This document shows, piece after piece, positions 2,465-17,235 of a stretch of DNA of 17,235 nucleotides. Position numbers and translations under genes: made by a program. Position 1 is the stretch's first letter. Each line of letters begins with the position of its first letter. Below the pieces are notes generated by a model. The model did not search any database and was not told the origin of the DNA. It was given only the letters and a program-made list of their open reading frames with translations. Source of the DNA: Chlamydiota bacterium (GTDB taxonomy: Bacteria > Auribacterota > Tritonobacteria > UBA1439); NCBI GenBank assembly GCA_037133055.1, contig JBAXOY010000064.1, forward strand, positions 1 through 17,235, given 5' to 3'.

Positions 2465-2477
2465 GGTGCTCCCCCTT

Positions 2478-3188
2478 TCAGATCATGAGGCTGCCGGCGG
2501 TGACCAGGAAATATTCCCCCATCGCGATCAGTATCCACCCGAAGAGATACTTGACCCTTACCATCCAGACGCCCGCGGCGGGAAGGCTCGCGAGGACGCC
2601 GGAGAAGGTCCCGACCAGTATCTGGAGCGTCCCCATCCCCAGGGCAAAGACGAAGAGGAGGCTCGTGCCGAAGACCACGTTCCCCTCGCCGGCCACGTAG
2701 CCGAGGAGGACCGCCAGCACGGGCGCGGTGCAGGGCCCGAGGACAAGCCCCGAGGCGGCGCCCACGAGGAATGCGCCGGCGAGCCCCGCCCGCGGCTTCC
2801 CGGGCCGCATGCCGCTCAAGAACCGCGGCAGGGGAAGCGCGAACACGTCGAACATGGAGAGGCCGAGCAGGATGCAGACGTTCGCGACCGCGAGGTAGGT
2901 CCAGGGACTCGACTGGACCCTCCCGAAAAGGGTCCCCGTGAGCGCGGCGACGCTGCCCAGCACGGTGTAGGTGCACGACATCCCGAGCACGTACACCACG
3001 GAAAGGGAAAAGCCCTTCCACCTTGATCCCCCGCTCTGTCCCCCGATGAACGCCACGGTGATCGGAATGACCGGGTAGACGCAGGGGGTCAGGCTGACGA
3101 GGAGGCCGCCGATGTAGACGGCGAAATACGCCAGGGCCGTCGACCCGTGCAGATAGCTCTCGAGGCCGTTGATGAATTCCTGGATCAC
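2478..3188 (-). CDS. ccdA: CcdA / DsbD-beta-type transmembrane disulfide electron transporter (~236 aa)
   Basis: SLTPCVYPVIP and GPCTAPVL redox motifs, about 6 hydrophobic segments, GVWMVRVKYLFG. Start re-called to GTG 3188, which overlaps the thioredoxin stop (GTGA); the track's extension to 3686 overlaps thioredoxin and ferritin. Confidence 0.92.
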   Translation of the reverse strand: MIQEFINGLESYLHGSTALAYFAVYIGGLLVSLTPCVYPVIPITVAFIGGQSGGSRWKGFSLSVVYVLGMSCTYTVLGSVAALTGTLFGRVQSSPWTYLAVANVCILLGLSMFDVFALPLPRFLSGMRPGKPRAGLAGAFLVGAASGLVLGPCTAPVLAVLLGYVAGEGNVVFGTSLLFVFALGMGTLQILVGTFSGVLASLPAAGVWMVRVKYLFGWILIAMGEYFLVTAGSLMI

Positions 3189-3499
3189 AGTATCCGCTCC
3201 AGGGCCCGCAGGAGTTCGTCCTCGGAGACGTTGCCCGCGAGCCGTGCCTTCTCCTCCCCGTCCCTGAAGAAAAGCACCGCGGGGAGGGCAAGGACGCGGA
3301 GCGTCGAGGCGGTCCGCGCGCAGGCGCTGATATCCACCTTGCCGAACCGCGCCTGCGGGTGCGCCTCCGCGAGCGCCTGCACGCGCGGCGCCACCTTCAG
3401 GCAGACGCCGCACCAGGGGGAGGAAAAGAGGACCACGAAGGGAAGCCTCGGCTCGATCACCTCGCGCGCAAAGTCGGCATCCGTGAGTTCGCGCAGCAT
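3185..3499 (-). CDS. Thioredoxin family protein (WCGVC)
   Basis: 104 aa; LRELTDADFAREV...VVLFSSPWCGVC...FGKVD...LPAVLFFRDGEE thioredoxin pattern; GAAGGA RBS. Confidence 0.88.
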   Translation of the reverse strand: MLRELTDADFAREVIEPRLPFVVLFSSPWCGVCLKVAPRVQALAEAHPQARFGKVDISACARTASTLRVLALPAVLFFRDGEEKARLAGNVSEDELLRALERIL

Positions 3500-3523
3500 G
3501 GCATCCTTCCCCCGGGAGCCGCG

Positions 3524-4048
3524 CTACGCCGCGGCGCCGGGCGCGGCAGGCGGCGGCGTGAAGACGCGCGCGGCGAGCTCGCGGTCGATCATGAAGAGCC
3601 CGCCGGGCGCGTCGCCCATGAGCTTCAGCTTCTTCACAACGTCGTCCGCCGACGCCTCCTCCTCCACCTGCTCGCCCACGAACCACTGGAGAAAGTTGTG
3701 CGTGGCGTGGTCCTCCTCCCGGCCGGCGAGGCTGACAAGATCGTTGATCCAGCCGGTGACCTTCTGCTCGTGGGCGTAGGCCTCCTCAAACACGTTGAGG
3801 GGTGAAGACCACTCCGCGGGGGGGCCGTCGATCGCCGTGAGGGTGACGCGTCCGCCCCGGTCCACGACATAGCCGAAGAACTTCGTCACGTGCACAAGCT
3901 CCTCCTGGACCTGCACCCGCATCCAGTTGGCGAACCCCTTGAGGTTGAGGGATTCGAAATAGGCCGCCATCGCCATGTACAGGTAGGCGGAGTAGAGCTC
4001 GCGGTTGATCTGCGCGTTCAGCGCATTCTGCATCTTCGCCTTGATCAT
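3524..4048 (-). CDS. ftnA: Non-heme ferritin
   Basis: [63 protein letters not shown] ferroxidase motifs; AAGGAGG RBS. Confidence 0.95.
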
Positions 4049-4072
4049 CGTTCCCTCCTTGTTGCGCGCGAT

Positions 4073-4570
4073 TCAGGCCTTCGGCAGCGCGTCCTGCATC
4101 TCCTTCAGTCTCCGCGCGTGCAGGCGTTCCTCCGCGATGATGCGGTCAAGCTGCCGCTTCGTTTCGTCCGACGCGACCCTGCCGCGGCAGGCCTCGTAGA
4201 ACTGCACGCTCCTCTCCTCGACGATCTGCCCGAGCCTCAATGCCTTCCGGGGGCTCTCCAGGGCGACCGCGAGATCCCGGTACGGCGCGAAGATGCCATA
4301 CTCGAGGGAGCTCGCGAGGTCGTCTTCCTCGAACGCGTCCTCTTTCGTCGCCCTGAGCCTCGCGAGTTCGCCCTCAAAGAATTCGAGATGATCGCGCTCC
4401 TGGCTCGCGAGGGAGAGGATTGATCCGCGGGCCGCGGCGGCGGTCATCCTGCCGGCCAGCGCCTCGTAGAATGCCATCCCGTCCCTCTCGATCCTCACGG
4501 CGATCTTGCACGCCTCGAGATCGTCGAAGTCGACGACGACCAGCGCCCCGGACCGCTCCTCTATGCGCAT
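4073..4570 (-). CDS. Rubrerythrin-family (ferritin-like diiron) protein lacking the rubredoxin domain
   Basis: Duplicated pattern AVRIERDGMAFY...QERDH and QIVEERSVQFY...EERLH; GGAGAGG RBS. Confidence 0.85.
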   Translation of the reverse strand: MRIEERSGALVVVDFDDLEACKIAVRIERDGMAFYEALAGRMTAAAARGSILSLASQERDHLEFFEGELARLRATKEDAFEEDDLASSLEYGIFAPYRDLAVALESPRKALRLGQIVEERSVQFYEACRGRVASDETKRQLDRIIAEERLHARRLKEMQDALPKA

Positions 4571-4592
4571 GCGTCCTCTCCCACGGGTCCGC

Positions 4593-4967
4593 TCACGCCG
4601 ACCAGAGCCCGTGCAGGTTGCAAAGCTCGCGCGCGGAGATTTGGGCGGCGGACACGGCGAACTCCGCCTCCGGGCGGTCCCCCGGCTTCAAAAACTGCCG
4701 GTAGGCCTTTCCGTCCGCGATCAGCTCTATCCATTCGATGTAGTGCTTCTCCTCCATCGGGTGGGGGGCGCTCCCCACGCGCACCTTCACGCCGCCGGCG
4801 GTCTTCTCGATCACCGGCACGTGCTTCTCCCGGGAAGCGTCCACCGTGTTCTCGACGAGAAGCTTCATCTCCTGCCCGCAGCAGACCAGTGTCCCCGCCC
4901 CATCGCGGAGCACCTCGACGAGGTTGCCGCACAACTCGCACGTGTGGATCTGGAGCCGCTTTGTCAT
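4593..4967 (-). CDS. dfx: Desulfoferrodoxin (2Fe superoxide reductase)
   Basis: From ATG 4967 (RBS GAGGGAGG): CELCGN..VCCGQ desulforedoxin domain; [17 protein letters not shown] and CNLHG SOR-site residues; 124 aa. Confidence 0.95.
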
Positions 4968-5014
4968 GACGCACCCTCCCTCTCGTCCCCGCGCGTGCTG
5001 CGGGGCACGCACCA

Positions 5015-5042
5015 ATGATAGTGGAATATCGCCGGAACGCAA
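5015..5042 (-). promoter_or_regulatory. Possible sigma70 promoter for the dfx-yyaL transcript
   Basis: Minus strand TTGCGT (5042-5037), 16-bp spacer, TATCAT (5020-5015), in an AT-rich patch. Confidence 0.35.
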
Positions 5043-5207
5043 CCTGATTATTTCATTTTCAATTGACTTTTCGCCGCGGGGAATGGGGATGCGCGACACG
5101 GCGAAGCCCCGGGCCATCACTCTCGGAATAAACGGGGCACGGGGCGAACGGAGCGGGGGCCGCGTCAGACCGCATCGCCGCGGGCGGCACACGCGAAAGG
5201 AAGCTCC

Positions 5208-5609
5208 TCAGTGCGCCGTTTTCGCGCACCTCGGGCACATGCCCTCGAACTCGAGCTTGTGTCCCGTAATGGTGAACTGGGTGGCGCCCCTCGCTTCGCC
5301 CTCGATGTTATCGAAGGCCTTCATCGAAAGGTCCTCGACGCACCCACACTTGTTGCAGCGGATGTGGTAATGGTTCGCCGTCGTGGCGTCGTAGCGGCGC
5401 TGGGTCCCGGCGAGCTCGAGCTTGAGAATCACCCCCCTGCCGGAGAGCGTCTCGAGATTCCGGTACACCGTCCCCAGGCTGACGCGGGGTATGCGCTCAC
5501 GCACCATCCGGTAGAGCTCGTCCGCGGTGGGGTGAGTCACCACCTTCCTGAGCTCCTCGAGGATGAGCTGCCGCTGCCTGGTGATTCTGAGCTTCTGATC
5601 CTGTTTCAT
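5208..5609 (-). CDS. Fur-family transcriptional repressor, PerR-like
   Basis: RITRQR..HPTADELY..SLGTVYRNL..RYD..HYHIRCNKCG.VED..EGMCPRC. There are two CxxC Zn motifs, and Asp at the RYD and VED positions as in PerR. AAGGAG RBS. Confidence 0.92.
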   Translation of the reverse strand: MKQDQKLRITRQRQLILEELRKVVTHPTADELYRMVRERIPRVSLGTVYRNLETLSGRGVILKLELAGTQRRYDATTANHYHIRCNKCGCVEDLSMKAFDNIEGEARGATQFTITGHKLEFEGMCPRCAKTAH

Positions 5610-5624
5610 GCGACTTCTCCTTTA

Positions 5625-5639
5625 TAATAACAATTATCA
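5625..5639. promoter_or_regulatory. Fur/Per-like box 1
   Basis: TAATAACAATTATCA matches TGATAATnATTATCA at 12 of 14 positions; it lies between the -10 and the RBS of the regulator. Confidence 0.7.
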
Positions 5640-5645
5640 AAACTA

Positions 5646-5674
5646 AATATACCCTATGTAAGAATACCTGTCAA
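5646..5674 (-). promoter_or_regulatory. Sigma70 promoter of the perR/fur-like gene
   Basis: Minus strand TTGACA (5674-5669), 17 bp, TATATT (5651-5646). Confidence 0.8.
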
Positions 5675-5686
5675 TAAGAATTATCG
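5672..5686. promoter_or_regulatory. Fur/Per-like box 2 overlapping the -35
   Basis: CAATAAGAATTATCG shares AATAAnAATTATC with box 1 and lies 47 bp from it. Confidence 0.6.
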
Positions 5687-5756
5687 AAAAAGAATCGCGA
5701 GGCCTGAATCTTCATGCGCCCATGTAAGGGCACGCTATGCTACCATACTTCACGCC

Positions 5757-6695
5757 ATGAGCACGAGCACGCTCCTGATGAGGGAGTACACTCGCCGCCT
5801 CAATCTCGCCCTGGACCACATCCGGGAACACCTCGACGGCAACCTCACGGTCGGATCGGTGTCCCGCGCCGCCCTCTTCGGCCCCTTTCATTTCCACCGG
5901 CTCTTCAGCGCCATGACCGGCGAGACGCTCTACAACCACATCCGCCGCATCCGTCTGGAAAAGGCCGCGAATCTCCTCCTTTACTCGCCGGAGCGCTCCG
6001 TCACCGACATCGCGCTCGAGGCCGGCTTCGGCTCGTCCGCCTCGTTCGCGCGGGCGTTCCGCGATCATTTCGGCATGAGCGCCTCCGAATGGCGGGCGTC
6101 GGGGGGGGCGCAGAAAAGCAAGAATCGCAAAGCGAAGAGCAAGGAGGGGAAAGCGGGCGGGAACCGTTCCCGGTATAGTGGTGCCCGTCGACGATCAACA
6201 CCACAACCAGGGAGGTGCGGCATGAAGGTGGAGGTGAAGGAGCTTCCCGCGTACCGCGTCGCGTACGTGAGCAGCAAAAGGGGTTACGAGGGGGATGCGA
6301 TCCACGAGGCGTACGGGACGCTGATGCGCTGGGCGGGGCCGCGCGGGCTCTGCGGGCCTCACACGGAGGTGATCGGCGCGTCGTACGACAACCCGGAGAT
6401 CACGGCCATGGCGAAGTGCCGCTACGACGCGTGCATCTCGATCGGGGACGACGTGAAGCCCGAGGGGCCGGTCTCCGTGAAGAAGTTCCCCGGCGGAAAG
6501 TATGCCGTGTACCGGTACCGCGGCAGGCCACAGGACCTCGGAAAAGTCTTCCAGCAGTTCATGGGAGAATGGTTCCCCTCGAGCGGGTACCAGCCGGGCG
6601 ACGCGCCGTGTCTCGAGTTCTACCACAACGACCCGGACCGGGACCCGAAGGGCGAGGCGACCGCGGACATCTGCATCCCGGTGAAGCCGCTCTGA
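5757..6695 (+). CDS. AraC-family regulator: N-terminal double HTH plus C-terminal GyrI-like effector domain
   Basis: FHFHRLFSAMTGETL..RRIRLEKAA..SVTDIALEAGFGSSASFARAFRDHFGMSASEW (AraC HTH); YDNPEIT..CRYDACI..GGKYAV..WFPSSGY..LEFY..DICIPV (GyrI-like). Confidence 0.93.
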   Translation: MSTSTLLMREYTRRLNLALDHIREHLDGNLTVGSVSRAALFGPFHFHRLFSAMTGETLYNHIRRIRLEKAANLLLYSPERSVTDIALEAGFGSSASFARAFRDHFGMSASEWRASGGAQKSKNRKAKSKEGKAGGNRSRYSGARRRSTPQPGRCGMKVEVKELPAYRVAYVSSKRGYEGDAIHEAYGTLMRWAGPRGLCGPHTEVIGASYDNPEITAMAKCRYDACISIGDDVKPEGPVSVKKFPGGKYAVYRYRGRPQDLGKVFQQFMGEWFPSSGYQPGDAPCLEFYHNDPDRDPKGEATADICIPVKPL

Positions 6696-6713
6696 CGGCG
6701 GCCGCGCACGGGC

Positions 6714-6755
6714 GCCCTCTCCCCTCCCCGGGAGGGGGGAGGGCACTTCTTTTCT
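6714..6755 (+). terminator. Intrinsic terminator hairpin after the araC-like gene
   Basis: GCCCTCTCCCCTCC-CCG-GGAGGGGGGAGGGC stem followed by ACTTCTTTTCT. Confidence 0.65.
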
Positions 6756-6819
6756 CAGGACGATGGGAAACCCGAAGGCGTCAGCACGGAGAGAATACCG
6801 CCCGCGCAGCCATTAGGGT

Positions 6820-6843
6820 GGGGTCAAATCTTTAATCTTGAAT
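6820..6843 (+). repeat. Left inverted repeat GGGGTCAAATCTTTAATCTTGAAT
   Basis: 23/24 match to the reverse complement of 7863-7886; contains the transposase stop codon. Confidence 0.9.
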
Positions 6844-7837
6844 CCTCTATAATGCGATTGCTCACTTCTTCAAATTGCTTTGCGAGCTGCCGGTCCTCCC
6901 GCATCTTGGACCGTAACTTTTTTCTGGCATAGCTCACCGCACTATAATCGATGCCCCCCATCAGCTTCCCGATTTCGTGCTGCGTGAGAAAACAATACCG
7001 ATAGAGAAGCTCCATCAGCATCGCCCTTGCAGTGGACTGTATCCCCTTCCGGCAGAGCGATTCCCTCGTTTCCCCGATAATGGCGCAATACTGTTCGATC
7101 AGTTCCTTTGGCGAGTATCTTTTTCCGAGTTCTCGCGTAGCGGGCTGTTCTCTCCGGGATTTTTCCTCTGGAACCATTTTCTCTTTCACCCAGGCAATGA
7201 ATTCCTTCTCCCCCACAATCCCATGCCCGCGCCCCATTTCCAGAGGACTCCTTATCTTCTTCTCTAGTCCTTCCACGATGAACCGCGCGTACGCATCCCT
7301 GCCCCGCCGTGTGTCCCCGCCGAAGTGAGCGAGAACCTCCTGATAGTCGACGAACTGCTGCTTTTTGCCGATGCCGAGATAGCCCTGAAGACTGCTCTCG
7401 CGATACCCCCAGAGATATTTCCACTTCTCTTCAATCGTCGCATCCTTGAACCTGTCCCCATGCACGGGATTGCTGTGCACATACCTGGAAAGTTCAATGA
7501 GATAGCTGTCCGAATCGACGAGAAACGCCTTGTACCGCCCCTGATACAGGTGCCCTACCCGCCCATGTCTCCGGTTGAACGCCATGGTGTAGGAGATGTT
7601 GAAATGCCTCATAAACTCAGACAAGTTCCCCTCCGCCGTGCGCACCATAAGGTGGAAGTGGTTTGGCATGAGCACATAGACATAGAGAGTAACGCGATAG
7701 GTTTCCAGGGAAAGGGAAAGTGTCTCGAGGAACTTTTGCCGGTCCGCGTTATCGCGGAAGATGGCCCTACGCTCGTTGCCGCGGCAGGTAACGTGGTAGT
7801 ACGCGCCTGGATACTGGATGCGAAGAGGTCTGGCCAT
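6824..7837 (-). CDS. RAYT/TnpA(REP)-like Y1 HUH transposase with C-terminal DnaA_C/TrpR-like HTH
   Basis: From ATG 7837: MARPLRIQYPGAYYHVTCRGNERRAIF..YVLMPNHFHL (HUH)..GHLYQGRYKA..YVHSNP (catalytic Tyr); C-terminal LTQHEIGKLMGGIDYSAVSYARKK; 337 aa. Confidence 0.9.
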   Translation of the reverse strand: MARPLRIQYPGAYYHVTCRGNERRAIFRDNADRQKFLETLSLSLETYRVTLYVYVLMPNHFHLMVRTAEGNLSEFMRHFNISYTMAFNRRHGRVGHLYQGRYKAFLVDSDSYLIELSRYVHSNPVHGDRFKDATIEEKWKYLWGYRESSLQGYLGIGKKQQFVDYQEVLAHFGGDTRRGRDAYARFIVEGLEKKIRSPLEMGRGHGIVGEKEFIAWVKEKMVPEEKSRREQPATRELGKRYSPKELIEQYCAIIGETRESLCRKGIQSTARAMLMELLYRYCFLTQHEIGKLMGGIDYSAVSYARKKLRSKMREDRQLAKQFEEVSNRIIEDSRLKI

Positions 7838-7862
7838 ATAATCCCCCCCGACCCACCCCAAT

Positions 7863-7886
7863 ATTCAATATTAAAGATTTGACCCC
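7863..7886 (-). repeat. Right inverted repeat ATTCAATATTAAAGATTTGACCCC
   Basis: Reverse-complement partner of 6820-6843; contains the metacaspase stop codon. Confidence 0.9.
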
Positions 7887-8680
7887 AAAAGCTCCGAGAA
7901 GACCGCGCGCCGCTTCGCCTCTGCGGGGCCCTCGAGCTGCGGGCGCTGCGTGTAGCCCGCTCCGGCGAGCGACCTTCTCACCCGCGCAATCAGCTCTTCG
8001 TAACTGATCCCCGGGCCGGACGCCTCCAATTCCCGGACCGCGAAATAGCTGAAGGCCCCCCGGGTCGCTCCCGTGAAATCCCCCTCCGAGGCGGGTTCGT
8101 CGTCCGAGGCCGCGCTCAGGAAGACCTCCCTCATCCCCTCCTCGCCGCGACCCAGAAGCCTTCTCTTGAGCGGACTCCGGGAGGTCACGCCGCCGGCAAA
8201 GGCGGCAGGGGGCTTGATGAATCTCGCTTTGCCGCCGGGCAGAATCCGCGTCACCGTGCCCGAGTAGCACGAGTCAGCGATGAAGGTGAAGGCGACGCCG
8301 TCGGGGATCCGGTCGAGGATGGGGCGGAGCTCGTCGTCCGTGATGAGTTTTCCGACATCCGCCTCCCATGGAACGAGCGCCTCGTCCCTCCCGTCCGCCT
8401 CGTCCCTCGCCCCCCTGTCGGGGACCCATGTGCCGTGACCCGAGTAGATGAAGGCGCAGACGTCGCCGCGTCGCGCGCCCGCGACGAGTCCATCGAGCGC
8501 GGCGAGGATGCCGCGCCGCGTCGCCTCCCCGTTGCGCAGCGTCCGCAATTCTCCCCGCGCAAAGCCGAACCGCCCGGCGAGAAGATCGGCCCAGGCGCGC
8601 GCGTCGTTCACGCAGCCGTGAAGATCGTTGTCCCCGCCGCAATAATCGTCAATGCCGATGCAGACCGCTTTCCTGCCCAT
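7871..8680 (-). CDS. Peptidase C14 caspase-like protein (metacaspase), single domain
   Basis: KAVCIGIDDY..LHGCVNDA..ATRRGIL..FIYSGHG (catalytic His)..DEADGRDEALVPW..IADSCYSG (catalytic Cys)..GAFSY..QRPQL. Confidence 0.92.
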   Translation of the reverse strand: MGRKAVCIGIDDYCGGDNDLHGCVNDARAWADLLAGRFGFARGELRTLRNGEATRRGILAALDGLVAGARRGDVCAFIYSGHGTWVPDRGARDEADGRDEALVPWEADVGKLITDDELRPILDRIPDGVAFTFIADSCYSGTVTRILPGGKARFIKPPAAFAGGVTSRSPLKRRLLGRGEEGMREVFLSAASDDEPASEGDFTGATRGAFSYFAVRELEASGPGISYEELIARVRRSLAGAGYTQRPQLEGPAEAKRRAVFSELLGSNL

Positions 8681-8813
8681 GGCTCACCCGTGCCCCCCTT
8701 TTCCGGGGAGGGCGGATTCCCCGACACCCGGCTTTTCCGTGACCGCCCCCGCGATTTCTCCCCTGCCCCGGGTCCCCGCTTCCGGCCGCCGGCGCCGACG
8801 CGCCTTCGTCCCG

Positions 8814-8842
8814 ATACTACACCCCGCGCGGCACCGGCGCAA
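8814..8842 (-). promoter_or_regulatory. Possible sigma70 promoter for the metacaspase
   Basis: Minus strand TTGCGC (8842-8837), 17 bp, TAGTAT (8819-8814). Confidence 0.4.
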
Positions 8843-8896
8843 CATTATTGATGCGGGACGATCCATCACCCCCCCTTCTTCATCCCCCTTCTTCAG

Positions 8897-8925
8897 TTGC
8901 TTTTTACCCGCCGTTCCCCTATACT
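8897..8925 (+). promoter_or_regulatory. Sigma70 promoter for pta and the methionine synthase
   Basis: TTGCTT (8897-8902), 17 bp, TATACT (8920-8925). Confidence 0.6.
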
Positions 8926-8980
8926 GCCGGGGTCGTTGTCGGGCGCTTCGCCGCGCCCGGTTCCGCGAGGAGATTCGTGC

Positions 8981-9991
8981 ATGCCCGAGAGAAGCGCGTT
9001 CCTGGAAGAGGTGTTTGCCAGGGCGAGGAAGGAGCCGAAGCGGCTCGTCCTCCCCGAGGGGCACGACGAGCGCATCGTCAGGGCGGCCGGCATCATCGCG
9101 CGGATGGGGCTCGCCCACCCCATCCTCCTCGGCAACCGCGACATGATCCTCGCCCTGATACGGTCGTCGGGGGAGAGCGCCGAGGGGATCGAGATCGTCG
9201 ACCTCCATGACAACCCCAGGAGGGAGGAGTACGCGAAGACCTTCTTCGAGCTCCGCCGGCACAAGGGCGTCACACTCGAACAGGCCCGCGAGACGATGGC
9301 CTCCTGGATATACTTCGGCACCATGATGGTCTACAAGGGCGAGGCGGACTGCCTCGTCTCCGGCGCGACGCACTCGACGCGCGACACGGTCATGCCCGCG
9401 CTCCGGATCATCAAGTGCAAGAAGGGCTGCTCCCTCGTCTCGAGCCTCTTCTTCATGGTCCTCGGCAGGGACGTCTTCGCCTTCGCCGACTGCGGCGTGG
9501 TCGAGAACCCCACGAGCGATCAGCTCGCGGAGATCGCCGTCGAGACCACCGAGACGGCAATGCACTTCGGCATCCCCCCGATCATCGCGCTCCTCTCCTA
9601 CTCCACGAAAGGGTCCGCCGCGGGGCCGCTCACGAAAAAGGTGACCGACGCGGTCGAGATCGCGAAGGTAAAGATCGCCCGGCGCTTCCCGGACAACAGG
9701 GAGATCGTGATCGACGGCGAACTCCAGGTGGACGCGGCGATCGTCCCGGCGGTCGCGGCGCGGAAGGCCGCGGGGAGCCCTGTGCAGGGGAGGGCGCGGG
9801 TGCTGATCTTCCCCGACCTCAACAGCGGCAACATCGCCTACAAGCTCGTCCAGCGCCTCGCGAAGGCCGAGGCCTACGGCCCCATCCTCCAGGGCCTCGC
9901 GAAACCCGTGAACGACCTCTCCCGCGGCTGCGTCGCCGACGACGTGGTCGGGGTCGCCGCCGTCACCGTCGTCCAGGCGCAGGGCGCCTGA
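8981..9991 (+). CDS. pta: Phosphate acetyltransferase (short, class I)
   Basis: From ATG 8981 (RBS GAGGAG): RLVLPEG..VSGATHST..FADCG..LLSYSTKGS..DGELQVDAA..LIFPDLNSGNIAYKL..GPILQGLAKPVNDLSRGC. Confidence 0.95.
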   Translation: MPERSAFLEEVFARARKEPKRLVLPEGHDERIVRAAGIIARMGLAHPILLGNRDMILALIRSSGESAEGIEIVDLHDNPRREEYAKTFFELRRHKGVTLEQARETMASWIYFGTMMVYKGEADCLVSGATHSTRDTVMPALRIIKCKKGCSLVSSLFFMVLGRDVFAFADCGVVENPTSDQLAEIAVETTETAMHFGIPPIIALLSYSTKGSAAGPLTKKVTDAVEIAKVKIARRFPDNREIVIDGELQVDAAIVPAVAARKAAGSPVQGRARVLIFPDLNSGNIAYKLVQRLAKAEAYGPILQGLAKPVNDLSRGCVADDVVGVAAVTVVQAQGA

Positions 9992-10007
9992 CGCTTTCGG
10001 AGCGAAG

Positions 10008-11051
10008 ATGAATTTCATTCCTTCCTGCAGGGCCACCGCGGTCGGCAGCATGCCGTACAGGGACGCGGGCGAGGCGGTCGATCGCGTCCTCGCGGCGTTC
10101 CCGGAGATCCCCGCCTGGCCCCAGCTCCCCAACCGGTCGTTTCTCGAGAACATGTACGTGCAGTACAGCGAGGGGCTCCCCTGCCTCGTCGTGGACCGGG
10201 AGAAGGAAAGGGTGTACTTCGACACCTCGGGCGACACGATGGCGGAGATCGAGGCGTTCTACGGGAAGGTGATCGAGGCGAACCTGGACGCATTCGCGAT
10301 CAGCCGCGAATACGCCCCGGGCTTCCACCGTCTCGTCGAGGCGCTGGCCGCCGCGCCCCCCGCGGGCCTCGCCTGCGTGAAGGGCCAGATCGTCGGCCCC
10401 GTCAGCATGGGGCTCACGGTGACCGACCAGGACAAGCGCGCGATCCTCTACCACGACGAGCTGATGGACGCGGTGCTGAAGTCCATCTCGATGAAGGCGG
10501 CATGGCAGGTCCGGGAGCTGAAGAGTGTGTGCCCGAACGTGATGATCTGGCTCGACGAGCCGTACCTCGCGAGCTTCGGCTCGGCCTACGTGAGCCTCTC
10601 GGAGAAGCAGGTCCTCTCGCTCATCGGCGAGGTGACGCAGGCCATCCACGACGCCGGCGCGCTCGCGGGGATCCACTGCTGCGGGAACACTGACTGGTCG
10701 CTCCTCATGAAGGCGGGTCTCGACATCATCAACTTCGACGCCTACGGCTACTTCACGGGGATGACCTGCTATCCGGAGGCGCTGAAATCCTTCATAGGTG
10801 AAGGCCGCATCCTCGCCCTCGGCCTCGTCCCCACCTCGGACAAGATCCGGGAGGAGACGGTCGAGAGCCTTGCCGCAAAGCTCGAGGAACGCCTGGGCGC
10901 ATTGGCCCAAAAGACCGGACTCGGGACAAAGGAGATCATGGCGCAGTGTCTCCTCACGCCGAGTTGCGGCACGGGGAGCCTCTCGCCGGAGCTCACCGGC
11001 AGGATACTCGAAACGGTCAGCGGGCTCTCCCGTCGAATGCGGCGGGCGTGA
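10008..11051 (+). CDS. Cobalamin-independent 'core' methionine synthase (MetE C-terminal barrel only; MesB-like)
   Basis: TAVGSMP..PAWPQLP..KGQIVGPVS..DEPYL..GIHCCGNTDW..NFDAY..GLVPT..LLTPSCG; Zn-ligand-type HCC and PSCG motifs; 347 aa with no N-terminal folate-binding half. Confidence 0.75.
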   Translation: MNFIPSCRATAVGSMPYRDAGEAVDRVLAAFPEIPAWPQLPNRSFLENMYVQYSEGLPCLVVDREKERVYFDTSGDTMAEIEAFYGKVIEANLDAFAISREYAPGFHRLVEALAAAPPAGLACVKGQIVGPVSMGLTVTDQDKRAILYHDELMDAVLKSISMKAAWQVRELKSVCPNVMIWLDEPYLASFGSAYVSLSEKQVLSLIGEVTQAIHDAGALAGIHCCGNTDWSLLMKAGLDIINFDAYGYFTGMTCYPEALKSFIGEGRILALGLVPTSDKIREETVESLAAKLEERLGALAQKTGLGTKEIMAQCLLTPSCGTGSLSPELTGRILETVSGLSRRMRRA

Positions 11052-11068
11052 TCGCCGCTCCCCCATAC

Positions 11069-11117
11069 CGCTTCATGCGCTTCGCGCGCTTCACGCGCAT
11101 TGCACGATTCATGCGCT
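11069..11117 (+). repeat. Degenerate 9-bp tandem repeat, about 5.5 copies (CGCTTCAYG-like)
   Basis: cgcttcatg cgcttcgcg cgcttcacg cgcattgca cgattcatg cgct. Confidence 0.75.
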
Positions 11118-11125
11118 CCCCGTGC

Positions 11126-11147
11126 AGGGCACACTTAAGTGTGCCCT
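11126..11147. repeat. Perfect 22-bp palindrome AGGGCACACTTAAGTGTGCCCT (REP-like or terminator hairpin)
   Basis: Exact self-complementarity; no U-tract. Confidence 0.85.
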
Positions 11148-11210
11148 ATAGCTGTGGATAACTTTTGCTTTTCCCCGCCCTGTTTGTCCTTTACTATTGT
11201 CGCACGGATC

Positions 11211-11240
11211 TGCTATATTATGTAGTAGTGATTATCACTA
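11211..11240 (+). promoter_or_regulatory. Extended -10 promoter and palindromic operator upstream of cooC
   Basis: TGcTATATT (11211-11219), then a perfect 7-1-7 TAGTGAT-T-ATCACTA (11226-11240) ending 2 nt before the ATG. Confidence 0.6.
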
Positions 11241-11242
11241 AC

Positions 11243-11989
11243 ATGAAAATAGCCATCACGGGAAAGGGCGGCGTGGGGAAGTCAACACTGAGCGCCCTCC
11301 TCTGCAGGGAGTTCGCCCGGGAAGGGCATGCGGTGCTCGCGGTCGACGCCGACCCCGACGCCAATCTCGCGTCGGCGCTCGGGTTTCCCGACGCGGAGAC
11401 CATCAAGCCCGTCTCCGAGCTCAAGGACCTCATCAGGGAGCGCGCCGGAGACGGGGGCGGCCTCGTGCGGCTGAACCCGCGCGTGGACGACATCCCCTCG
11501 ACGCACAGCGCCGTGCACGACGGAGTGAAGCTGATCGTCATGGGCGGCATCACCCGCGCCGGGAGCGGCTGCGCGTGCCCGGCGAACGTATTCCTGAAAG
11601 AGCTTATGCGCCACATCCTCCTCGGATCGGGGGAGATCGTCGTGATGGACATGGAGGCGGGGATCGAGCACCTTGGCCGGGCGACGGCCGACAGCGTCGA
11701 CGTGCTCGTCGCGGTCGCGGAGCCGTCGGCGATGAGCATCGGCTCGGCGAAAAAGATCGCCCGCATGGCGGGGGAGATGGGGATCAGGAGGATCGCCGCC
11801 GTCGCGAACAAGACCGCCTCCGAAGACGAATCCGCCGCGGTGGCGCGGGAGCTCGCCCCGTTGGAGTTTCTCGGCGCCCTTCCGTTCAGCCGGGCGCTCC
11901 GCGACGCCGCCCTGCGGCGCGGCGCGGCGCACGGGGACCCCGCGCTCGCGGCAGCGGTGTCCCGCATCGCCCGCCTGATCGCCGGGTGA
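11243..11989 (+). CDS. cooC: CO dehydrogenase nickel-insertion ATPase CooC
   Basis: MKIAITGKGGVGKST (deviant Walker A), VDADPDANL, GSGCACP (CxC Ni site), DMEAGIEHLGR, VANK. Start re-called to ATG 11243. Confidence 0.95.
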   Translation: MKIAITGKGGVGKSTLSALLCREFAREGHAVLAVDADPDANLASALGFPDAETIKPVSELKDLIRERAGDGGGLVRLNPRVDDIPSTHSAVHDGVKLIVMGGITRAGSGCACPANVFLKELMRHILLGSGEIVVMDMEAGIEHLGRATADSVDVLVAVAEPSAMSIGSAKKIARMAGEMGIRRIAAVANKTASEDESAAVARELAPLEFLGALPFSRALRDAALRRGAAHGDPALAAAVSRIARLIAG

Positions 11990-12010
11990 GCGCGCGCGCC
12001 CCATATATCA

Positions 12011-12040
12011 TTGGCACGGGTTTCGGCGAGGGGGTATAAT
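12011..12040 (+). promoter_or_regulatory. Sigma70 promoter directly upstream of cooS
   Basis: TTGGCA (12011-12016), 18 bp, TATAAT (12035-12040). Confidence 0.65.
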
Positions 12041-12092
12041 CGGCCGCGCCGGCTTTTCCACTCCGCGCGCGGCGTGACAGGGGAATGAAACC

Positions 12093-14006
12093 ATGAAACA
12101 GACGGTCGATCGGGCGGCGCAAAAGGTGCTGGATTCCACGATTGGGCGGCAGGCGAAAACGGTGTGGGACCGGAGCGAGGCAATGGAGCCGCGGTGCGGC
12201 TTCGGAGACCTGGGAATCTGCTGCACCATCTGCCTCCAGGGCCCGTGCCGCATCGACCCGTTCGGGCCCCCGGACCAGAAGGGGTGCTGCGGGGCGGACG
12301 CCGACACGATCGCCGCGCGGAACTTCATCCGCGCCATCGCCGCGGGCTGCGCGGCGCACTCCGACCACGGCAGGGACATCGCCTCCACGCTCCTCCACGC
12401 CGCCAAGGGCGGCACGGGGGGATTCCGGATCACCGACGCTGCGAAGCTCAACGCGATTGCCGCCGAGCTGGGGATTCCCGCGGAGGGCCGCTCCCCGGAA
12501 CAGGTCGCCGAGAAGGTCGCCCTCGCATGCCTTGAGCAGTTCGCCCGCTCCCCGCTCCCGTTCATGCAGCGGGCCCCCGAGCCGCTCAAGAAGAAATGGA
12601 GCCAGGCGACCCTCTGGCCGAAGGGGATCGACCGCGAGGTCGTCGAGGTCCTCCACCGGACGCACGAGGGAGTCGACGCCGACTACCGCAACCTGATCCT
12701 CTCCGGCATCCGCGCGGCGCTCGCGGACGGCTGGGGCGGGTCCATGCTCGCCACCGAATTGAGCGACATCCTCTTCGGCTCGCCCTCCCCCATCAGGTCG
12801 AAGGCGAACCTCGGCGTCCTCAAGGCCGACGAGGTGAACATCGTCGTCCACGGGCACGAGCCCGCGCTCTCGGACATGGTCGCCCGCGCCTCTCGGGAGG
12901 GCGAGCTCCTCGACTACGCCCGGCACAAGGGGGCGAAGGGGATCAACGTCTGCGGCCTCTGCTGCACCTCGATCGAGCTGCTGATGCGGCAGGGCTACCC
13001 GGCGCTGGGGAACTTCCTCAGCCAGGAGCTCGCGATCCTCACGGGCGCGGTGGACCTGATGGTCGTGGACGTGCAGTGCGTCATGCCGGGGATCCAGGAC
13101 ATGGCGAAATGCTTCCACACCGAGCTCCTCACCACCTCGCCCAAGGCGAAGATGCCCGGCGTGAACCATCTCGAGTTCGAGGAGTCGAAGGCGCATGCGC
13201 TCGCGCACGAGATCGTCCGCCGGGCGGTGGACGCCTACACCCGCAGGCGTCCGGAACGCGTCAACATCCCCGACGAGGTGATGGACCTCGTCGCGGGATT
13301 CACCGTCGAGAACATCTTCACCAACCTCGGCGGCACCTTCCGCTCCACCTTCCGCCCGCTGAACGACGCCATCATCTCGGGACGCCTGCGCGGCGTCGCG
13401 GCCGTCATCGGCTGCAACAACGCCAAGGTGACGCAGGACGAGGGGCACCTCGCCATGACGAGGAGGCTCCTCGCCGCCGACGTGCTCGTGGTGCAGACCG
13501 GCTGCTCGGCCACGGCGTGCGCCAAGGAGGGGTTCCTCCGCCCCGAGGCCGCGCTCGAGCTCGCGGGCGAGGGGCTCCGCGAGATCTGCGAGACCGTCGG
13601 GATCCCGCCCGTCATCCACATGGGCTCGTGCGTGGACAATTCCCGGGTCTTGAGGGCGCTCTGCGAGATGGTGAAGGAGGGCGGCCTCGGCGGGGACATC
13701 AGCGACCTGCCCGTCGCCGCGGCGGCCCCCGAGGCGATGAGCGAGAAGGCCGTCTCCATCGGCTGCTACGCGGTCGGCTCCGGCGTCTTCACGGTCTTCT
13801 CCCCGCCCCCGCGCGTCGAGGGGAGCCGCAACGTCGTCGAGTTCCTCACCCGCGGGATCGAGGATGTCACCGGGGGCAAATTCTGTTTCGAGCGCGACCC
13901 GGTGAAAGGGGCCGAGGCGATGATCGCCCACATGGATGCGAAGAGAAAGGCCCTCGGCCTGAGCCCCATGATGTACAAAGAGAAGATATACAAAGAGAAA
14001 AAGTAG
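12093..14006 (+). CDS. cooS: Anaerobic Ni,Fe carbon monoxide dehydrogenase catalytic subunit
   Basis: CGFGDLGICCTICLQGPC..CG (D and B clusters); AAHSDH; C-cluster ligand motifs HGHEP, GLCCT, DVQC, GCNN, TGC and GSCVDNSR; EAMSEKA catalytic Lys. Confidence 0.97.
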   Translation: MKQTVDRAAQKVLDSTIGRQAKTVWDRSEAMEPRCGFGDLGICCTICLQGPCRIDPFGPPDQKGCCGADADTIAARNFIRAIAAGCAAHSDHGRDIASTLLHAAKGGTGGFRITDAAKLNAIAAELGIPAEGRSPEQVAEKVALACLEQFARSPLPFMQRAPEPLKKKWSQATLWPKGIDREVVEVLHRTHEGVDADYRNLILSGIRAALADGWGGSMLATELSDILFGSPSPIRSKANLGVLKADEVNIVVHGHEPALSDMVARASREGELLDYARHKGAKGINVCGLCCTSIELLMRQGYPALGNFLSQELAILTGAVDLMVVDVQCVMPGIQDMAKCFHTELLTTSPKAKMPGVNHLEFEESKAHALAHEIVRRAVDAYTRRRPERVNIPDEVMDLVAGFTVENIFTNLGGTFRSTFRPLNDAIISGRLRGVAAVIGCNNAKVTQDEGHLAMTRRLLAADVLVVQTGCSATACAKEGFLRPEAALELAGEGLREICETVGIPPVIHMGSCVDNSRVLRALCEMVKEGGLGGDISDLPVAAAAPEAMSEKAVSIGCYAVGSGVFTVFSPPPRVEGSRNVVEFLTRGIEDVTGGKFCFERDPVKGAEAMIAHMDAKRKALGLSPMMYKEKIYKEKK

Positions 14007-14042
14007 CCGCCGGCCGGAACGGGCGGGGGCGGAGAGCATCCG

Positions 14043-14552
14043 ATGAAGGGTGTCATCGTCATAGACGTCGAAAAATGCCTCGGCTGCAGGAGCTGCCAGG
14101 TGCAGTGCGCGCTGGAGCATTCCCACTCGAAGAACCTCGTCGAGGCGATCCGGGAGCGGCCCGCGCCGAGGGCGCGGGTGAGGGTCGAGGCGGTGGACGG
14201 CCTCGCGGTCCCGCTCCAGTGCCGCCACTGCGAGGATGCGCCCTGCGTCAGGGTCTGCCCGTCTCACGCGCTGGAAAAGCCGGGGATCGACGACCCGGTG
14301 TCGGTCACGAACGAGCGCTGCATCGGGTGCAGTCTCTGCATCCTCGCGTGCCCGTTCGGGGTGATCGACATGGACGTCACGGGCAAAGCGATCGTGAACT
14401 GCGACCTGTGCGTGGAGAGGCTGAAAAATGACCGGCTCCCCGCCTGCGTGGAAGGGTGCCCCACGAAGGCGCTCCAGTTCAAGAGTTTGAAGGATGTATC
14501 CTCGGGAAAACGCAGGAAATACCTCACCGCCATCGCGCGGGGCGACAGGTAG
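14043..14552 (+). CDS. cooF: CooF-type 4x[4Fe-4S] electron transfer protein
   Basis: CLGCRSCQVQC, CRHCEDAPCVRVCP, CIGCSLCILACP, CDLC..PACVEGCP; directly after cooS. Confidence 0.9.
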   Translation: MKGVIVIDVEKCLGCRSCQVQCALEHSHSKNLVEAIRERPAPRARVRVEAVDGLAVPLQCRHCEDAPCVRVCPSHALEKPGIDDPVSVTNERCIGCSLCILACPFGVIDMDVTGKAIVNCDLCVERLKNDRLPACVEGCPTKALQFKSLKDVSSGKRRKYLTAIARGDR

Positions 14553-14580
14553 CGCGCCCCCGCCCACCGAAAGGCTCCGG

Positions 14581-15081
14581 ATGCACGCCGCCGACATCAT
14601 CAGGGAGACGGACGAGATCGTCGATCGTTACGGCGCCCGGATCGCGGGCTCGATCGGCATGCTGCAGGATATCCAGGCCCGCCTGGGCTATCTGCCGAGG
14701 GAGGCGCTCACCCGCATGGCGGAGAGGATCGAGGTCCCCCTGAGCCGGATCTTCGGCCTCGCGACTTTTTACCGGGCCTTCAGCCTCAAGCCCCGCGGGA
14801 AGCATCACCTCTGCGTCTGCATGGGCACCGCCTGCCACGTCCGCGGCGCGCCGGGGCTCGTGGACGAGGTGGAGAGAAAACTCGGCGTCAAGCCCGGGGA
14901 GACCACGGACGACAACGCCTTCACCCTCGATGCGGTGAACTGCCTTGGCGCGTGCGCGCTGGGCCCCCTGATGACCATCGACGGGGAGTACTACGGGAAG
15001 ATGACGCCCGGGAAGGTGGAGCCGGTCCTGAAGAAATACCGGAAAACCGTTTCACCACGAAGGCATGAAGGAAAAAAATGA
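14581..15081 (+). CDS. HydC/NuoE-like (BfuC) [2Fe-2S] subunit
   Basis: LQDIQARLGYLP..LATFYRAFSLKPRGKH..VCMGTACHVRGA..VNCLGACALGP. Start re-called to ATG 14581. Confidence 0.92.
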   Translation: MHAADIIRETDEIVDRYGARIAGSIGMLQDIQARLGYLPREALTRMAERIEVPLSRIFGLATFYRAFSLKPRGKHHLCVCMGTACHVRGAPGLVDEVERKLGVKPGETTDDNAFTLDAVNCLGACALGPLMTIDGEYYGKMTPGKVEPVLKKYRKTVSPRRHEGKK

Positions 15082-15085
15082 CGGG

Positions 15086-15173
15086 GGGACGCAGATGAAC
15101 GCAGATCGTCAGGATAGACAGGATACGTCGTCGTATCTGCGTGAATCCTTACGCTCCTGACAATCTGCGTCCC
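15086..15173. repeat. 88-bp imperfect palindrome built from ACGCAGAT/CAGGAT units
   Basis: Outer arms GGGACGCAGAT / ATCTGCGTCCC and a central GATACG-TCGT-CGTATC share the same centre. Confidence 0.8.
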
Positions 15174-15190
15174 GACGTTGAAGCGTTGAC

Positions 15191-17068
15191 GTGGAATGCC
15201 GAATGAAGACCGCCGTGGACAGGATCGCCACCGTTGCCGATCTCGAGGCGCTGCAGAAATCCCTCGCGGCCGGGCGCGACCCCTCGAAGCCCTGCGTCGC
15301 CGTCTGCGCGGGGACGGGATGCTCGGCGTCGGGCGGTGCGCGGGTGGCCGATGCCTTCAGGGCGGAGATCGCGGCGCGGGGCCTCCAGGCCGCGGTCGAC
15401 ATCCGGACGACGGGATGCCACGGGTTCTGCGAGCGGGGCCCTCTCGTGGTGATCCACCCGCGGGGAATTTTTTACCAGAAGGTCTCTCCGGACGATGTCG
15501 CGGAGATCGTCTCCCGGACGGTCGGCGAGGGCCGCGTGATCGACCGCCTGCTCTACGTCGACCCGGCGACCGGGGAGAAAATAGTCCACGAGAACGAGGT
15601 CCCGTTCTACCGCGCGCAGACGAGGCTCATCCTCGGCGCCAACGGCAGGATCGACCCCACCCGCATCGAGGATTATATCGAGGGGGGCGGGTACCGCGCG
15701 CTCGCGAAGGCGCTTTTTTCGATGACGCCGCAGGGCGTCGTCGACGAGATCGCGGCGTCGGGACTTCGGGGGCGCGGGGGGGGCGGCTACCCGACGGGGA
15801 GGAAGTGGGACTCCTGCCGGAAGGCGGAGGGGGATGTCAAATACGTGATCTGCAACGCCGACGAGGGCGACCCCGGCGCATTCCAGGACCGGAGCCTCAT
15901 CGAGGGAAATCCGCACCGCGTGATCGAGGGGATGCTCATCGGCGGGTACGCGGTCGGCGCCCGGGAGGGGTACATCTACGTCCGCAACGAGTATCCCCTG
16001 GCCGTGAAGCACATCGGGATCGCGCTCGAGCAGGCACGCGCCCGGGGGCTCCTCGGCGAAAACATCCTCGGCTCCGGTTTTTCCTTCGACATCACGGTAA
16101 ACCGCGGCGGCGGGGCGTTCGTCTGCGGAGAGTCGAGCGCGCTCATGGCCTCGCTGGAGGGCAGGCTCGGGGAGCCCCGGTTCAAGCACGTGCACGCGAC
16201 CGAGAAGGGCCTCTGGGACAGGCCCACCGTCCTGAACAACGTCAAGACGTGGGCCACGGTCGGCGTGATACTGCGCGAGGGCGCGGCGTGGTTCGCGAAG
16301 ATAGGGACCGAAAAGAGCACGGGCACCATGCTCTTCTCGCTCGTCGGGAAGATCAACAACACCGGCCTGGTCGAGGTGCCCATGGGGATCACGCTGCGCG
16401 AGCTTGTCTTCGGAATCGGGGGAGGGATCCCCGGCGAGAAACAGTTCAAGGCGGTCCAGACCGGGGGGCCCTCGGGGGGATGCATCCCCGCCTCCCTGCT
16501 CCATCTCCCCGTGGATTACGACAGCCTCACCGCGGCGGGGTCCATGATGGGCTCGGGCAGCCTCATCGTCATGGACGAGGACGCCTGCATGGTCAACATC
16601 GCCCGGTATTTCCTCTCCTTCACCATGGAGGAGTCGTGCGGGAAGTGCACCCCGTGCCGGGAGGGGATCGAGCAGATGCTCGGGATACTCGACGCGATCA
16701 CCCGGGGCGAGGCGGGCGAGGGCGACCTCGGGCTCCTCGAGGAGCTCGGGACGATGGTGGGGCAGACGTCCCTGTGCGCCCTCGGCGGCTCCGCGCCCAA
16801 CCCGATCCTGAGCACCCTGCGGTATTTCAGGGACGAGTACCTCGCGCACATCAGGGAGAAGAGGTGCCCCGCCGGCGTCTGCCGCGCCCTGATCCGCTAT
16901 TCGATCGACGCGGCGAAATGCACCGGGTGCGGGGCCTGCGTGAAGGCGTGTCCCGAGGCCGCGATCTCGGGCGAGAAGAAAAAGCCGCACCTGCTGGACG
17001 CGGCGAAGTGCGTCACATGCGGGCTCTGCCGCGACGCGTGCAGATTCGACGCGGTCACCGTGGGATAA
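15191..17068 (+). CDS. HydB/NuoF-like (BfuB) FMN/NAD(P)-binding subunit, long form (start GTG 15191 or ATG 15203)
   Basis: N-terminal CAGTGC..GCHGFC [2Fe-2S] domain; GLRGRGGGGYPTG; CNADEGDPGA; SLBB GGPSGGC; ESCGKCTPCREG..SLCALG; AHIREKRCPAGVC; C-terminal 2x[4Fe-4S]. Confidence 0.93.
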   Translation: MECRMKTAVDRIATVADLEALQKSLAAGRDPSKPCVAVCAGTGCSASGGARVADAFRAEIAARGLQAAVDIRTTGCHGFCERGPLVVIHPRGIFYQKVSPDDVAEIVSRTVGEGRVIDRLLYVDPATGEKIVHENEVPFYRAQTRLILGANGRIDPTRIEDYIEGGGYRALAKALFSMTPQGVVDEIAASGLRGRGGGGYPTGRKWDSCRKAEGDVKYVICNADEGDPGAFQDRSLIEGNPHRVIEGMLIGGYAVGAREGYIYVRNEYPLAVKHIGIALEQARARGLLGENILGSGFSFDITVNRGGGAFVCGESSALMASLEGRLGEPRFKHVHATEKGLWDRPTVLNNVKTWATVGVILREGAAWFAKIGTEKSTGTMLFSLVGKINNTGLVEVPMGITLRELVFGIGGGIPGEKQFKAVQTGGPSGGCIPASLLHLPVDYDSLTAAGSMMGSGSLIVMDEDACMVNIARYFLSFTMEESCGKCTPCREGIEQMLGILDAITRGEAGEGDLGLLEELGTMVGQTSLCALGGSAPNPILSTLRYFRDEYLAHIREKRCPAGVCRALIRYSIDAAKCTGCGACVKACPEAAISGEKKKPHLLDAAKCVTCGLCRDACRFDAVTVG

Positions 17069-17072
17069 GGCG

Positions 17073-17235
17073 ATGGTCAAGGCCATACTGGATAACCGGG
17101 AAATCGAGGTCGAGGAAGGGACGACCGTGCTCGAGGCCGCGCGGAGGATGGGGATCGAGATCCCGACCCTGTGCGACCACCCGGCGATCGAGCCGTACGG
17201 CGGGGCGGCGACGGGCATCGGGGGCGTCATTCGCG
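17073..17235 (+). CDS. Partial HydA/NuoG-like N-terminal [2Fe-2S] subunit (BfuA-like); sequence after ~17204 looks like purL
   Basis: My translation: MVKAILDNREIEVEEGTTVLEAARRMGIEIPTLCDHPAIEPYGG|AATGIGGVIR. Confidence 0.8.
   Translation, partial: MVKAILDNREIEVEEGTTVLEAARRMGIEIPTLCDHPAIEPYGGAATGIGGVIR

Follow-up and report, generated by a model that had tools for sequence, protein, structure and literature searches.

The electronic wiring of CODH/ACS, the carbon monoxide dehydrogenase/acetyl-CoA synthase, is little known beyond the model acetogens. A CODH linked to a Bfu module (Codh-Bfu) was predicted in 2022 by Schut et al. from four Firmicutes sequences in clade 49, and Supplementary Table 1 of that paper may hold more (PMC9304861). 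CodhABCSF of Sporomusa silvacetica, which is WorABCSL-like, was proposed by Feng et al. in 2025 from bioinformatics only (PMC12318220). In the available text of these two papers, Codh-Bfu had never been purified as of 2025 and oxidation of CO at low levels is proposed as its function; the preliminary description of the present locus had likewise called such complexes predicted and little characterised. The bifurcating aldehyde oxidoreductase WorABCSL (PDB 9MQX), from Acetomicrobium mobile, is among the closest known systems and is used here for comparison (Feng et al. 2025, PMC12318220). The locus in question lies on contig JBAXOY010000064.1, a stretch of 17,235 nucleotides (hereafter the window) from an uncultured lake bacterium of Candidatus (Ca.) Auribacterota. 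It encodes a CODH (CooS), CooF and the Bfu subunits BfuC, BfuB and BfuA. It is likely a member of the predicted Codh-Bfu kind, set in an incomplete acs operon outside the Firmicutes, with a WorABC-type module that can be swapped for a FAD-NAD oxidoreductase (FNOR).

The locus resembles the predicted Codh-Bfu and CodhABCSF in having BfuABC, CooS and CooF in one cluster. It differs from Codh-Bfu in its Ca. Auribacterota host, in the order cooS-cooF-bfuC-bfuB-bfuA-acsB and in the WorB-type motif of BfuB; in the Codh-Bfu of Schut et al. the Codh genes lie between bfuB and bfuA, and no ACS is mentioned in the text available. Similar to WorABCSL, it has a short A subunit with Fe-S clusters only (A1, A2 and A4), a zinc finger and a helix, as well as a WorS-like wire and a GESSAL-type B subunit. 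Unlike in WorABCSL, catalysis falls to a Ni,Fe-CODH homodimer associated with ACS rather than to the tungsten protein WorL, and BfuB has Q228, K348 and M376. The CooS-CooF-FNOR clusters use the same slot between acsA and acsB, but have a single flavoprotein and a different CooF, and no ferredoxin branch is expected.

A second comparison is with Dehalococcoides, where AcsB without AcsE or CODH cleaves acetyl-CoA, the corrinoid Fe-S protein (CoFeSP) is proposed to hand the methyl group to MesB, and the CO exits the cell (PMC7005905, PMC7857596). The window locus is similar to the incomplete Wood-Ljungdahl pathway of D. mccartyi (AcsB, AcsCD and core-MetE/MesB) in having acsB, acsC, acsD, a MesB-like gene and no acsE, and five relatives of the same family have exactly the CODH-less set of D. 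mccartyi. Unlike D. mccartyi, the genome of the window (G000) also carries a CODH cassette, by which the CO could be removed, plus MetH and MetF. Williams et al. put forward the same cleavage idea for CODH-less Auribacterota and coupled the CODH of Ca. Tritonobacter lacicola to Ech (PMC9324843). In the literature searched, whose coverage leaves out most subscription journals, no paper was found that reports Bfu genes lying within an acs operon, and the available parts of PMC5736913, PMC7325909 and PMC9888536 contain nothing on this arrangement. Codh-Bfu itself was already predicted; what is new is the acsE-less, MesB-linked setting, the occurrence of the cassette in three states within a single family and the argument that the path runs oxidatively.

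We consider it about an even call that CODH, CooF and BfuABC make up a single electron path in which CO is oxidised and its electrons are shared out to NAD(P)+ and ferredoxin (Fd). ACS would run in the cleavage direction, from acetyl-CoA to methyl-CoFeSP and CO, and homocysteine would receive the methyl group through MesB, in line with the proposal for Dehalococcoides. CooS would oxidise the CO from this cleavage, or CO from outside. Electrons would pass from CooF to A4, A2 and A1 of BfuA and on to the FMN site, as in WorABCSL, with the overall reaction 2 CO + 2 H2O + NAD(P)+ + 2 Fd(ox) -> 2 CO2 + NAD(P)H + 2 Fd(red). Ferredoxin could be reoxidised by Rnf or a group 4 hydrogenase-like complex. 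A wider version is possible, though doubtful. It envisages a CODH/ACS-CooF-BfuABC supercomplex in which the CO from ACS cleavage would be channelled and captured, a CooF nanowire would feed NAD(P)H and reduced ferredoxin, and methionine made from acetate would repay low-potential electrons; the cassette would have been gained, swapped for FNOR and lost in one family, and CODHs would have recruited Bfu about five times.

Continuation of the acs operon on contig C29

The preliminary description had listed cooC, cooS, cooF, a HydC-like gene, a HydB-like gene and a HydA-type N-terminus, and all are found in that order on the + strand, the last starting at 17073. The window is the entire contig C64 of G000, which is 92% complete, and the conserved GACRLC motif of bfuA is interrupted by its last 33 bases (17203-17235). 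Contigs from the sequencing runs X2, X3 and X4 agree with the window to 17202 and then diverge; runs sharing few words with the window were left out. The remainder of bfuA is at the start of contig C29, which overlaps the window by 5 bases. An X2 contig of 1885 bases spans window 15850-17202 and C29 1-537, and an X4 contig of 515 bases spans window 16849-17202 and C29 1-166, both with 0 mismatches; the two runs are independent and come from two studies. The junction is also crossed by a related metagenome contig (L141, 89-95% nucleotide identity), and the same operon is intact on one contig in the relative G008. Among the matches listed, a contig of 61,479 bases is the longest for CooS, CooF, BfuB, AcsD, AcsC and full AcsB alike. 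The window ends at an assembly break and the gene order across C64-C29 is real. The end coordinate given previously, 17204, nearly coincides with the actual junction (17202).

On C29, bfuA is followed by acsB, acsD, acsC and acsV, so that the operon order is pta-mesB-cooC-acsA-cooF-bfuC-bfuB-bfuA-acsB-acsD-acsC-acsV. The earlier statement that no acsB is present holds for the window and fails for the locus; the gene is missing from the window because the window is the whole of C64 and the operon goes on into C29. With acsB-acsD-acsC-acsV downstream, the AcsA of this CODH/ACS operon is CooS. The idea of a free-standing CODH had to be abandoned, with the genes inside the acs operon and the N-terminal domain of AcsB of the CODH-bearing type. 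AcsB has this domain and the A-cluster ligands, and acsC and acsD are in the same cluster. The N-terminal domain is 82-86% identical to those of G008 and G004 and 54-59% identical to those of the five CODH-less relatives. In G002, of the same genus, the other domains of AcsB are 86-87% identical and the N-terminal domain is in the 54-59% class; the domains other than the N-terminal one track kinship. The match of this domain to the CODH-bearing relatives fits CooS as the true partner of ACS.

CooS scores 649 bits against the NCBIfam anaerobic CODH cut-off of 478, and its relatives in the PDB are CODHs without exception. Motifs for the D-, B- and C-clusters were all located, as were the catalytic His and Lys, and the ligand motifs are thus intact as first described. 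The roles of these motifs are assumed to be those in CODH-II of C. hydrogenoformans.

The BfuABC module and its probable link to the CODH

All B1-B5 and C1 sites are kept in BfuB and BfuC, which amounts to the full cofactor set. BfuB has the N-terminal [2Fe-2S] cysteines C35, C40, C72 and C76, the B1 ligands C479, C482, C485 and C525, a site made up of C462, H549, C555 and C560, and a 2x[4Fe-4S] domain at its C-terminus. Pfam domains and ligands thus bear out the extra domains claimed for the HydB-like protein. Its nearest solved relatives are the B subunits of bifurcating enzymes (NiFe-HydB 7T2R, WorB 9MQX and HydB 8A6T).

The joined BfuA has 251 aa and 17 Cys, which provide for one [2Fe-2S] and two [4Fe-4S] clusters. 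Cys 34/45/48/64 are the [2Fe-2S] set; A1 and A2 are thus present, and G008 has an intact orthologue. A C-terminal CxxC...CxxC zinc finger (Cys 204/207/234/237) is followed by 14 residues. The Pfam families of BfuA are Fe-S only, with no A3, A5, H-cluster, Mo/W-bisPGD or GltD domain. The G008 protein, identical to the joined BfuA in 160 of 256 columns, has WorA as its best match (9mqx_A, E 2e-48). Recovery of the true downstream gene, proposed earlier as a check, therefore yields a BfuA without an H-cluster, Mo/W-bisPGD or GltD domain, and the complete hydrogenase or formate dehydrogenase subunit that would have contradicted a CODH-Bfu complex is absent. StnC, HydA and FdhA as identities of the third subunit were rejected on the same Fe-S-only, 251-aa BfuA.

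The zinc finger and helix dock WorS in the solved WorABCSL (PMC12318220). A survey of 106 BfuA rows, in which kin are not independent, shows a zinc finger and a tail of at least 12 residues in all uncut BfuA proteins near a CooF/WorS-like gene (24/24), and a CooF/WorS-like neighbour for none of the 46 without finger and tail. A further 36 rows have finger and tail but no CooF in the available DNA; these include short loci and mis-scored long fusions. The pattern agrees with the rule of Feng et al. Three CODH-linked Bfu loci (L145, L184 and L192) have a BfuA without the zinc finger and no cooF in the available DNA, a different wiring.

CooF has 16 invariant Cys. On the CooS tree the window groups with G004 (support 99) and then with G008. 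On the CooF tree it groups with G008 and other Bfu-linked CooFs, not with G004, and a constraint uniting the CooFs of the window and G004 is rejected (approximately unbiased test, p 0.015; 21 of the 32 CooF rows). CooF follows the redox module and not CooS. This co-variation and the WorABC architecture, which docks a CooF homologue, support the original idea of a CODH wired to a Bfu module, and such wiring is likely. A complex prediction for CooF and the C-terminal 140 residues of BfuA gave a score of 0.80, with one control at 0.62; it returns no verdict and is not evidence either way.

A GTDB scan with the GES[S/T]AL motif gave at least 120 stretches, 80 of them with long flanks. The module adjoins cooS or acsB in four of the 80 (Clostridia, Spirochaetaceae, Anaerolineales and Pirellulales), and one further stretch has cooC and a close cooF. 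A metagenome scan with the NNVKTWATV motif of the window gave 64 loci, 58 with BfuB; 19 of the 52 long rows are linked to cooS or acsB. The BfuB tree (FastTree, 133 proteins, no published clade reference sequences included) left out the frameshifted L023 and the duplicates L001, L003 and L196. It places the window in a clade of 15 rows (support 100), of which 13 have cooS or acsB and the other two are too short. The CODH link takes five changes over the 73 BfuB rows with known context, a count with no root or clade test, which suggests repeated recruitment of Bfu modules. Four CODH-Bfu operons in one metagenome clade (L151:4532-8368, L194, L147 and L157) encode an AcsB of about 1279 aa or more with internal insertions or repeated domains. 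The loci L213, L214, L218 and L219 (G055, G033, G052 and G047) have acsB-acsC-acsV-acsD with no cooS in the available DNA, and acsE in three; for G033, a cooS search of relatives gave no match.

BfuB shares the GESSAL and K-x-x-H-A-T motifs with WorB; a WorA-like (type 2) module would be expected in BfuB clade 45. GESSAL was dropped as a unique or NADP-specific mark because it is common in GTDB and occurs in the NAD-using WorB. Residues 348 and 376 vary together: E348 is paired with K376 in 77/77 rows and K348 with a non-Lys residue (Met, Val, Thr or Ala) in 55/55. The rule fits 132 of 134 rows, with the other two in neither class, and about six changes occur on the BfuB tree. The pattern is that of a compensated swap. 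K348 was also tried as a marker of the CODH link, which is found in 19 of 24 informative K rows (metagenome scan) and 4 of 43 informative E rows (GTDB scan); it was rejected, as the two sets differ in search pattern and collection and the two supported independent pairs show no signal (p 0.5-1), so that the association fails once phylogeny is controlled for. Three loci (L186, L200 and L201) each have two bfuCBA sets, one with Lys348 and one with Glu348, and the neighbouring ribosomal genes look archaeal by eye.

Three states of the cassette and the direction of the pathway

The acsB gene is found in 23 of 79 genomes of the phylum and in 8/8 of the family, and cooS in 5 of 41 relatives searched and 2/8 of the family. 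Judging by length, the remaining PF03063 matches are inferred to be hybrid cluster proteins. In G002, G003, G005, G006 and G007 the MesB-like gene is directly 5' of acsB with no CODH cassette, and in G002 pta directly precedes the MesB-like gene too; in G001, acsB begins at the contig edge. The G004 slot has cooC-cooS, a different cooF and FNOR in place of cooF-bfuCBA. FNOR occupies the slot between acsA and acsB in G004, G016, G050 and G051, and a second family shows both forms, with Bfu in G049 and FNOR in G050 and G051. The host family thus offers a natural comparison of three states against a background of near-identical CODH and ACS genes, with the CODH missing, joined to a simple NAD(P) reductase or joined to Bfu. 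The intact single-contig operon of G008 could be used for expression.

The gene between pta and cooC is predicted to encode MesB, which would take the methyl group from CoFeSP. Its Zn ligands H223, C225, D244 and C320 have the MesB-like spacing of PMC7857596 and are invariant in 11/11 aligned homologues. The best fold matches are cobalamin-independent methionine synthases followed by UroD/MtaA, and the Atlas match is 'methionine synthase family' (0.97). No Pfam family scored over its cut-off for the protein, and its alignment profile gave nothing meaningful against PDB sequences. Homologues in two Dehalococcoidia genomes (E 1e-107 to 1e-109) are an indirect sign only; a score of 173 bits or more against DET0516 of D. 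mccartyi is the published threshold for MesB (PMC7857596).

G000 does not show a complete Wood-Ljungdahl set. Stand-alone AcsE is found in 0/8 family genomes, where the only match is a MetH-length frame, and there is none in G000. Fhs was not found in G000 and is present in 3/8 family genomes. No catalytic formate dehydrogenase was found in G000, the single match being the StnC-like protein of contig C19, and no matches were obtained in G000 for [FeFe]-hydrogenase (PF02906), MttB or MtaA/UroD-family proteins. The genome has Rnf, a StnABC-like set, MetH with an AcsE-like pterin domain, MetF, FolD, Pta, AckA, a 57-aa 2x[4Fe-4S] ferredoxin and, on contig C68, a group 4 hydrogenase-like complex in which the two CxxC motifs are present. 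On C19 there is a second Bfu set (L012:4282-9889) beside glutamate dehydrogenase, with a GltD-like, StnC-type large subunit; it is likely an Nfn-Bfu/Stn transhydrogenase, and its BfuB has the canonical AFM and GEETAL.

From the potentials tabulated by Schut et al. (their Table 1), the equilibrium pCO comes to about 1/5 of pCO2 with ferredoxin alone, about 1/25,000 with NAD and ferredoxin together and 1e-8 with NAD alone. The combined acceptors suit scavenging and make the reverse harder. A Bfu-linked CODH would clear CO well while half of the electrons stay at the ferredoxin level.

Several points weigh against bifurcation in the oxidative direction. The AFM motif conserved among bifurcating enzymes (PMC12018979) is AFQ in BfuB, where A226 and F227 are kept and Gln228 replaces Met, and BfuB also has E348K and K376M. 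G004 manages with FNOR, so bifurcation is not needed there. The MesB call is a prediction from motif spacing, fold and neighbourhood rather than from direct comparison with a characterised enzyme, and Price et al. caution that the more remote MesB-like proteins of genomes of this sort may have another role. MetH and MetF make MesB look redundant and weaken the argument from methionine, and in a genome 92% complete the missing genes could be unassembled. The acsB gene of G000 has an in-frame TAG at codon 566 (L011:2702-2704, C29). Another assembly encodes a 729-aa AcsB on the 61,479-base contig with Lys at codon 566 and just two positions different; we regard the TAG as a probable error of the assembly or variant of the strain. 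Pyrrolysine read-through was rejected, with no PylS over cut-off and Lys in the other assembly. The acsB of G056 has one TAG as well. Finally, L018 and L090 have the same layout plus acsE in other lineages, so the module itself does not imply the oxidative direction.

It is unlikely that the module, though wired to the CODH through CooF, acts as a simple NAD(P)-linked diaphorase that could trade places with the FNOR of G004. The exact slot replacement in G004 and the two forms in the family of G049, G050 and G051 fit this, as do the AFQ variant, the E348K/K376M changes near the flavin motifs and the fact that CO is a strong enough reductant without bifurcation. Ser311 of BfuB also occupies the position of Glu286 of T. 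sibiricus NfnB, which favours NADH over NADPH (PMC12018979). However, WorB has the same Ser and uses NAD, so Ser311 does not fix NAD or NADP for BfuB, and the enzyme of WorB requires NAD and ferredoxin together (PMC12318220). A226, F306 and GGPSG of BfuB are also retained, along with all B1-B5 and C1 sites of the module, and B2-B5 are missing in the non-bifurcating homologues covered by the text available from PMC9304861. It is highly improbable that BfuABC is merely co-transcribed and serves another partner, with CooS-CooF delivering electrons to ferredoxin or a membrane hydrogenase. The complex on C68, the CODH-Ech coupling proposed by Williams et al. (PMC9324843) and related BfuABC sets that stand alone or beside other enzymes would allow it, but bfuCBA lies between cooF and acsB, 13 of the 15 clade rows carry cooS or acsB, a catalytic domain is missing from BfuA, no alternative partner gene lies nearby, and CooF changes along with the module. 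The main text of PMC9324843 is silent on a Bfu module.

The reductive direction, in which CODH/ACS would place CO2 in the carboxyl of acetyl-CoA, is decidedly improbable. The pta gene at the head of the region, ackA adjoining a second cooC, MetF, FolD and the MetH with its AcsE-like pterin domain are in keeping with it, as is the combination of this layout with acsE in L018 and L090. Against it stand the missing stand-alone AcsE throughout the family and the unmatched Fhs, formate dehydrogenase, MttB and MtaA/UroD-family proteins of G000. The five relatives with ACS and no CODH fit only cleavage or uptake of outside CO, and the low equilibrium pCO stated above for NAD and ferredoxin follows from a mean potential of -390 mV for the donors. 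If the oxidative, bifurcating path is correct, a CODH/ACS linked to Bfu need not point to CO2 fixation, and annotations of such genomes as autotroph or CODH-Ech hydrogenogen overlook a built-in electron acceptor.

Features of the window and neighbouring genes

Coordinates of the features in the window (positions 1 to 17,235)
Feature	Position	Strand	Basis
pta, phosphate acetyltransferase, opens the acs region	8981..9991	+	scores above cut-off for PF01515 and TIGR00651
MesB-like core methionine synthase (predicted)	10008..11051	+	Zn-ligand spacing, fold matches, Atlas match
sigma-70-like promoter match (9/12), 5' of cooC	11190..11219	+	consensus match only
cooC, nickel-insertion ATPase	11243..11989	+	PF01656; 74% and 69% identity to pre-cooS genes of G004 and G008
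sigma-70-like promoter match (11/12), 5' of cooS	12011..12040	+	consensus match only
cooS/acsA, Ni,Fe CO dehydrogenase, 637 aa	12093..14006	+	TIGR01702 over cut-off
cooF, 4x[4Fe-4S] wire, 169 aa, WorS-like basic C-terminal tail	14043..14552	+	best PDB match WorS 9mqx_E
bfuC, HydC/NuoE-like, [2Fe-2S]	14581..15081	+	PF01257; four Cys (C1 cluster)
small inverted-repeat element, bfuC/bfuB gap	15081..15178	.	related copy on C29 between bfuA and acsB (L011:758-895)
bfuB, long HydB type, FMN/NAD(P) site, B1-B5, 621 aa	15203..17068	+	Pfam domains, ligands
bfuA 5' part, first 43 of 251 codons	17073..17202	+	rest at start of C29
unsupported 33-base tail, likely assembly artefact	17203..17235	.	X2, X3 and X4 contigs diverge after 17202

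A consensus scan found two sigma-70-like sites against 0.5 expected, and no terminator-like site on the + strand in the gene gaps from cooS to bfuA. An Rfam scan of the window gave no match. The inverted-repeat elements of the operon are very abundant in lake metagenomes, and the C29 copy is at high depth.

The window also has a Y1 (IS200-like) transposase at 6824-7861 and a metacaspase-like peptidase (PF00656) on the - strand at 7871-8680. Positions 1-5609, on the - strand, hold an oxidative-stress cluster with a Fur/PerR-like regulator, desulfoferrodoxin, a rubrerythrin-like protein, ferritin, thioredoxin, a peroxiredoxin-like protein and a DUF255 protein. From a look at the sequence only, the same cluster also encodes a DsbD-like membrane protein.

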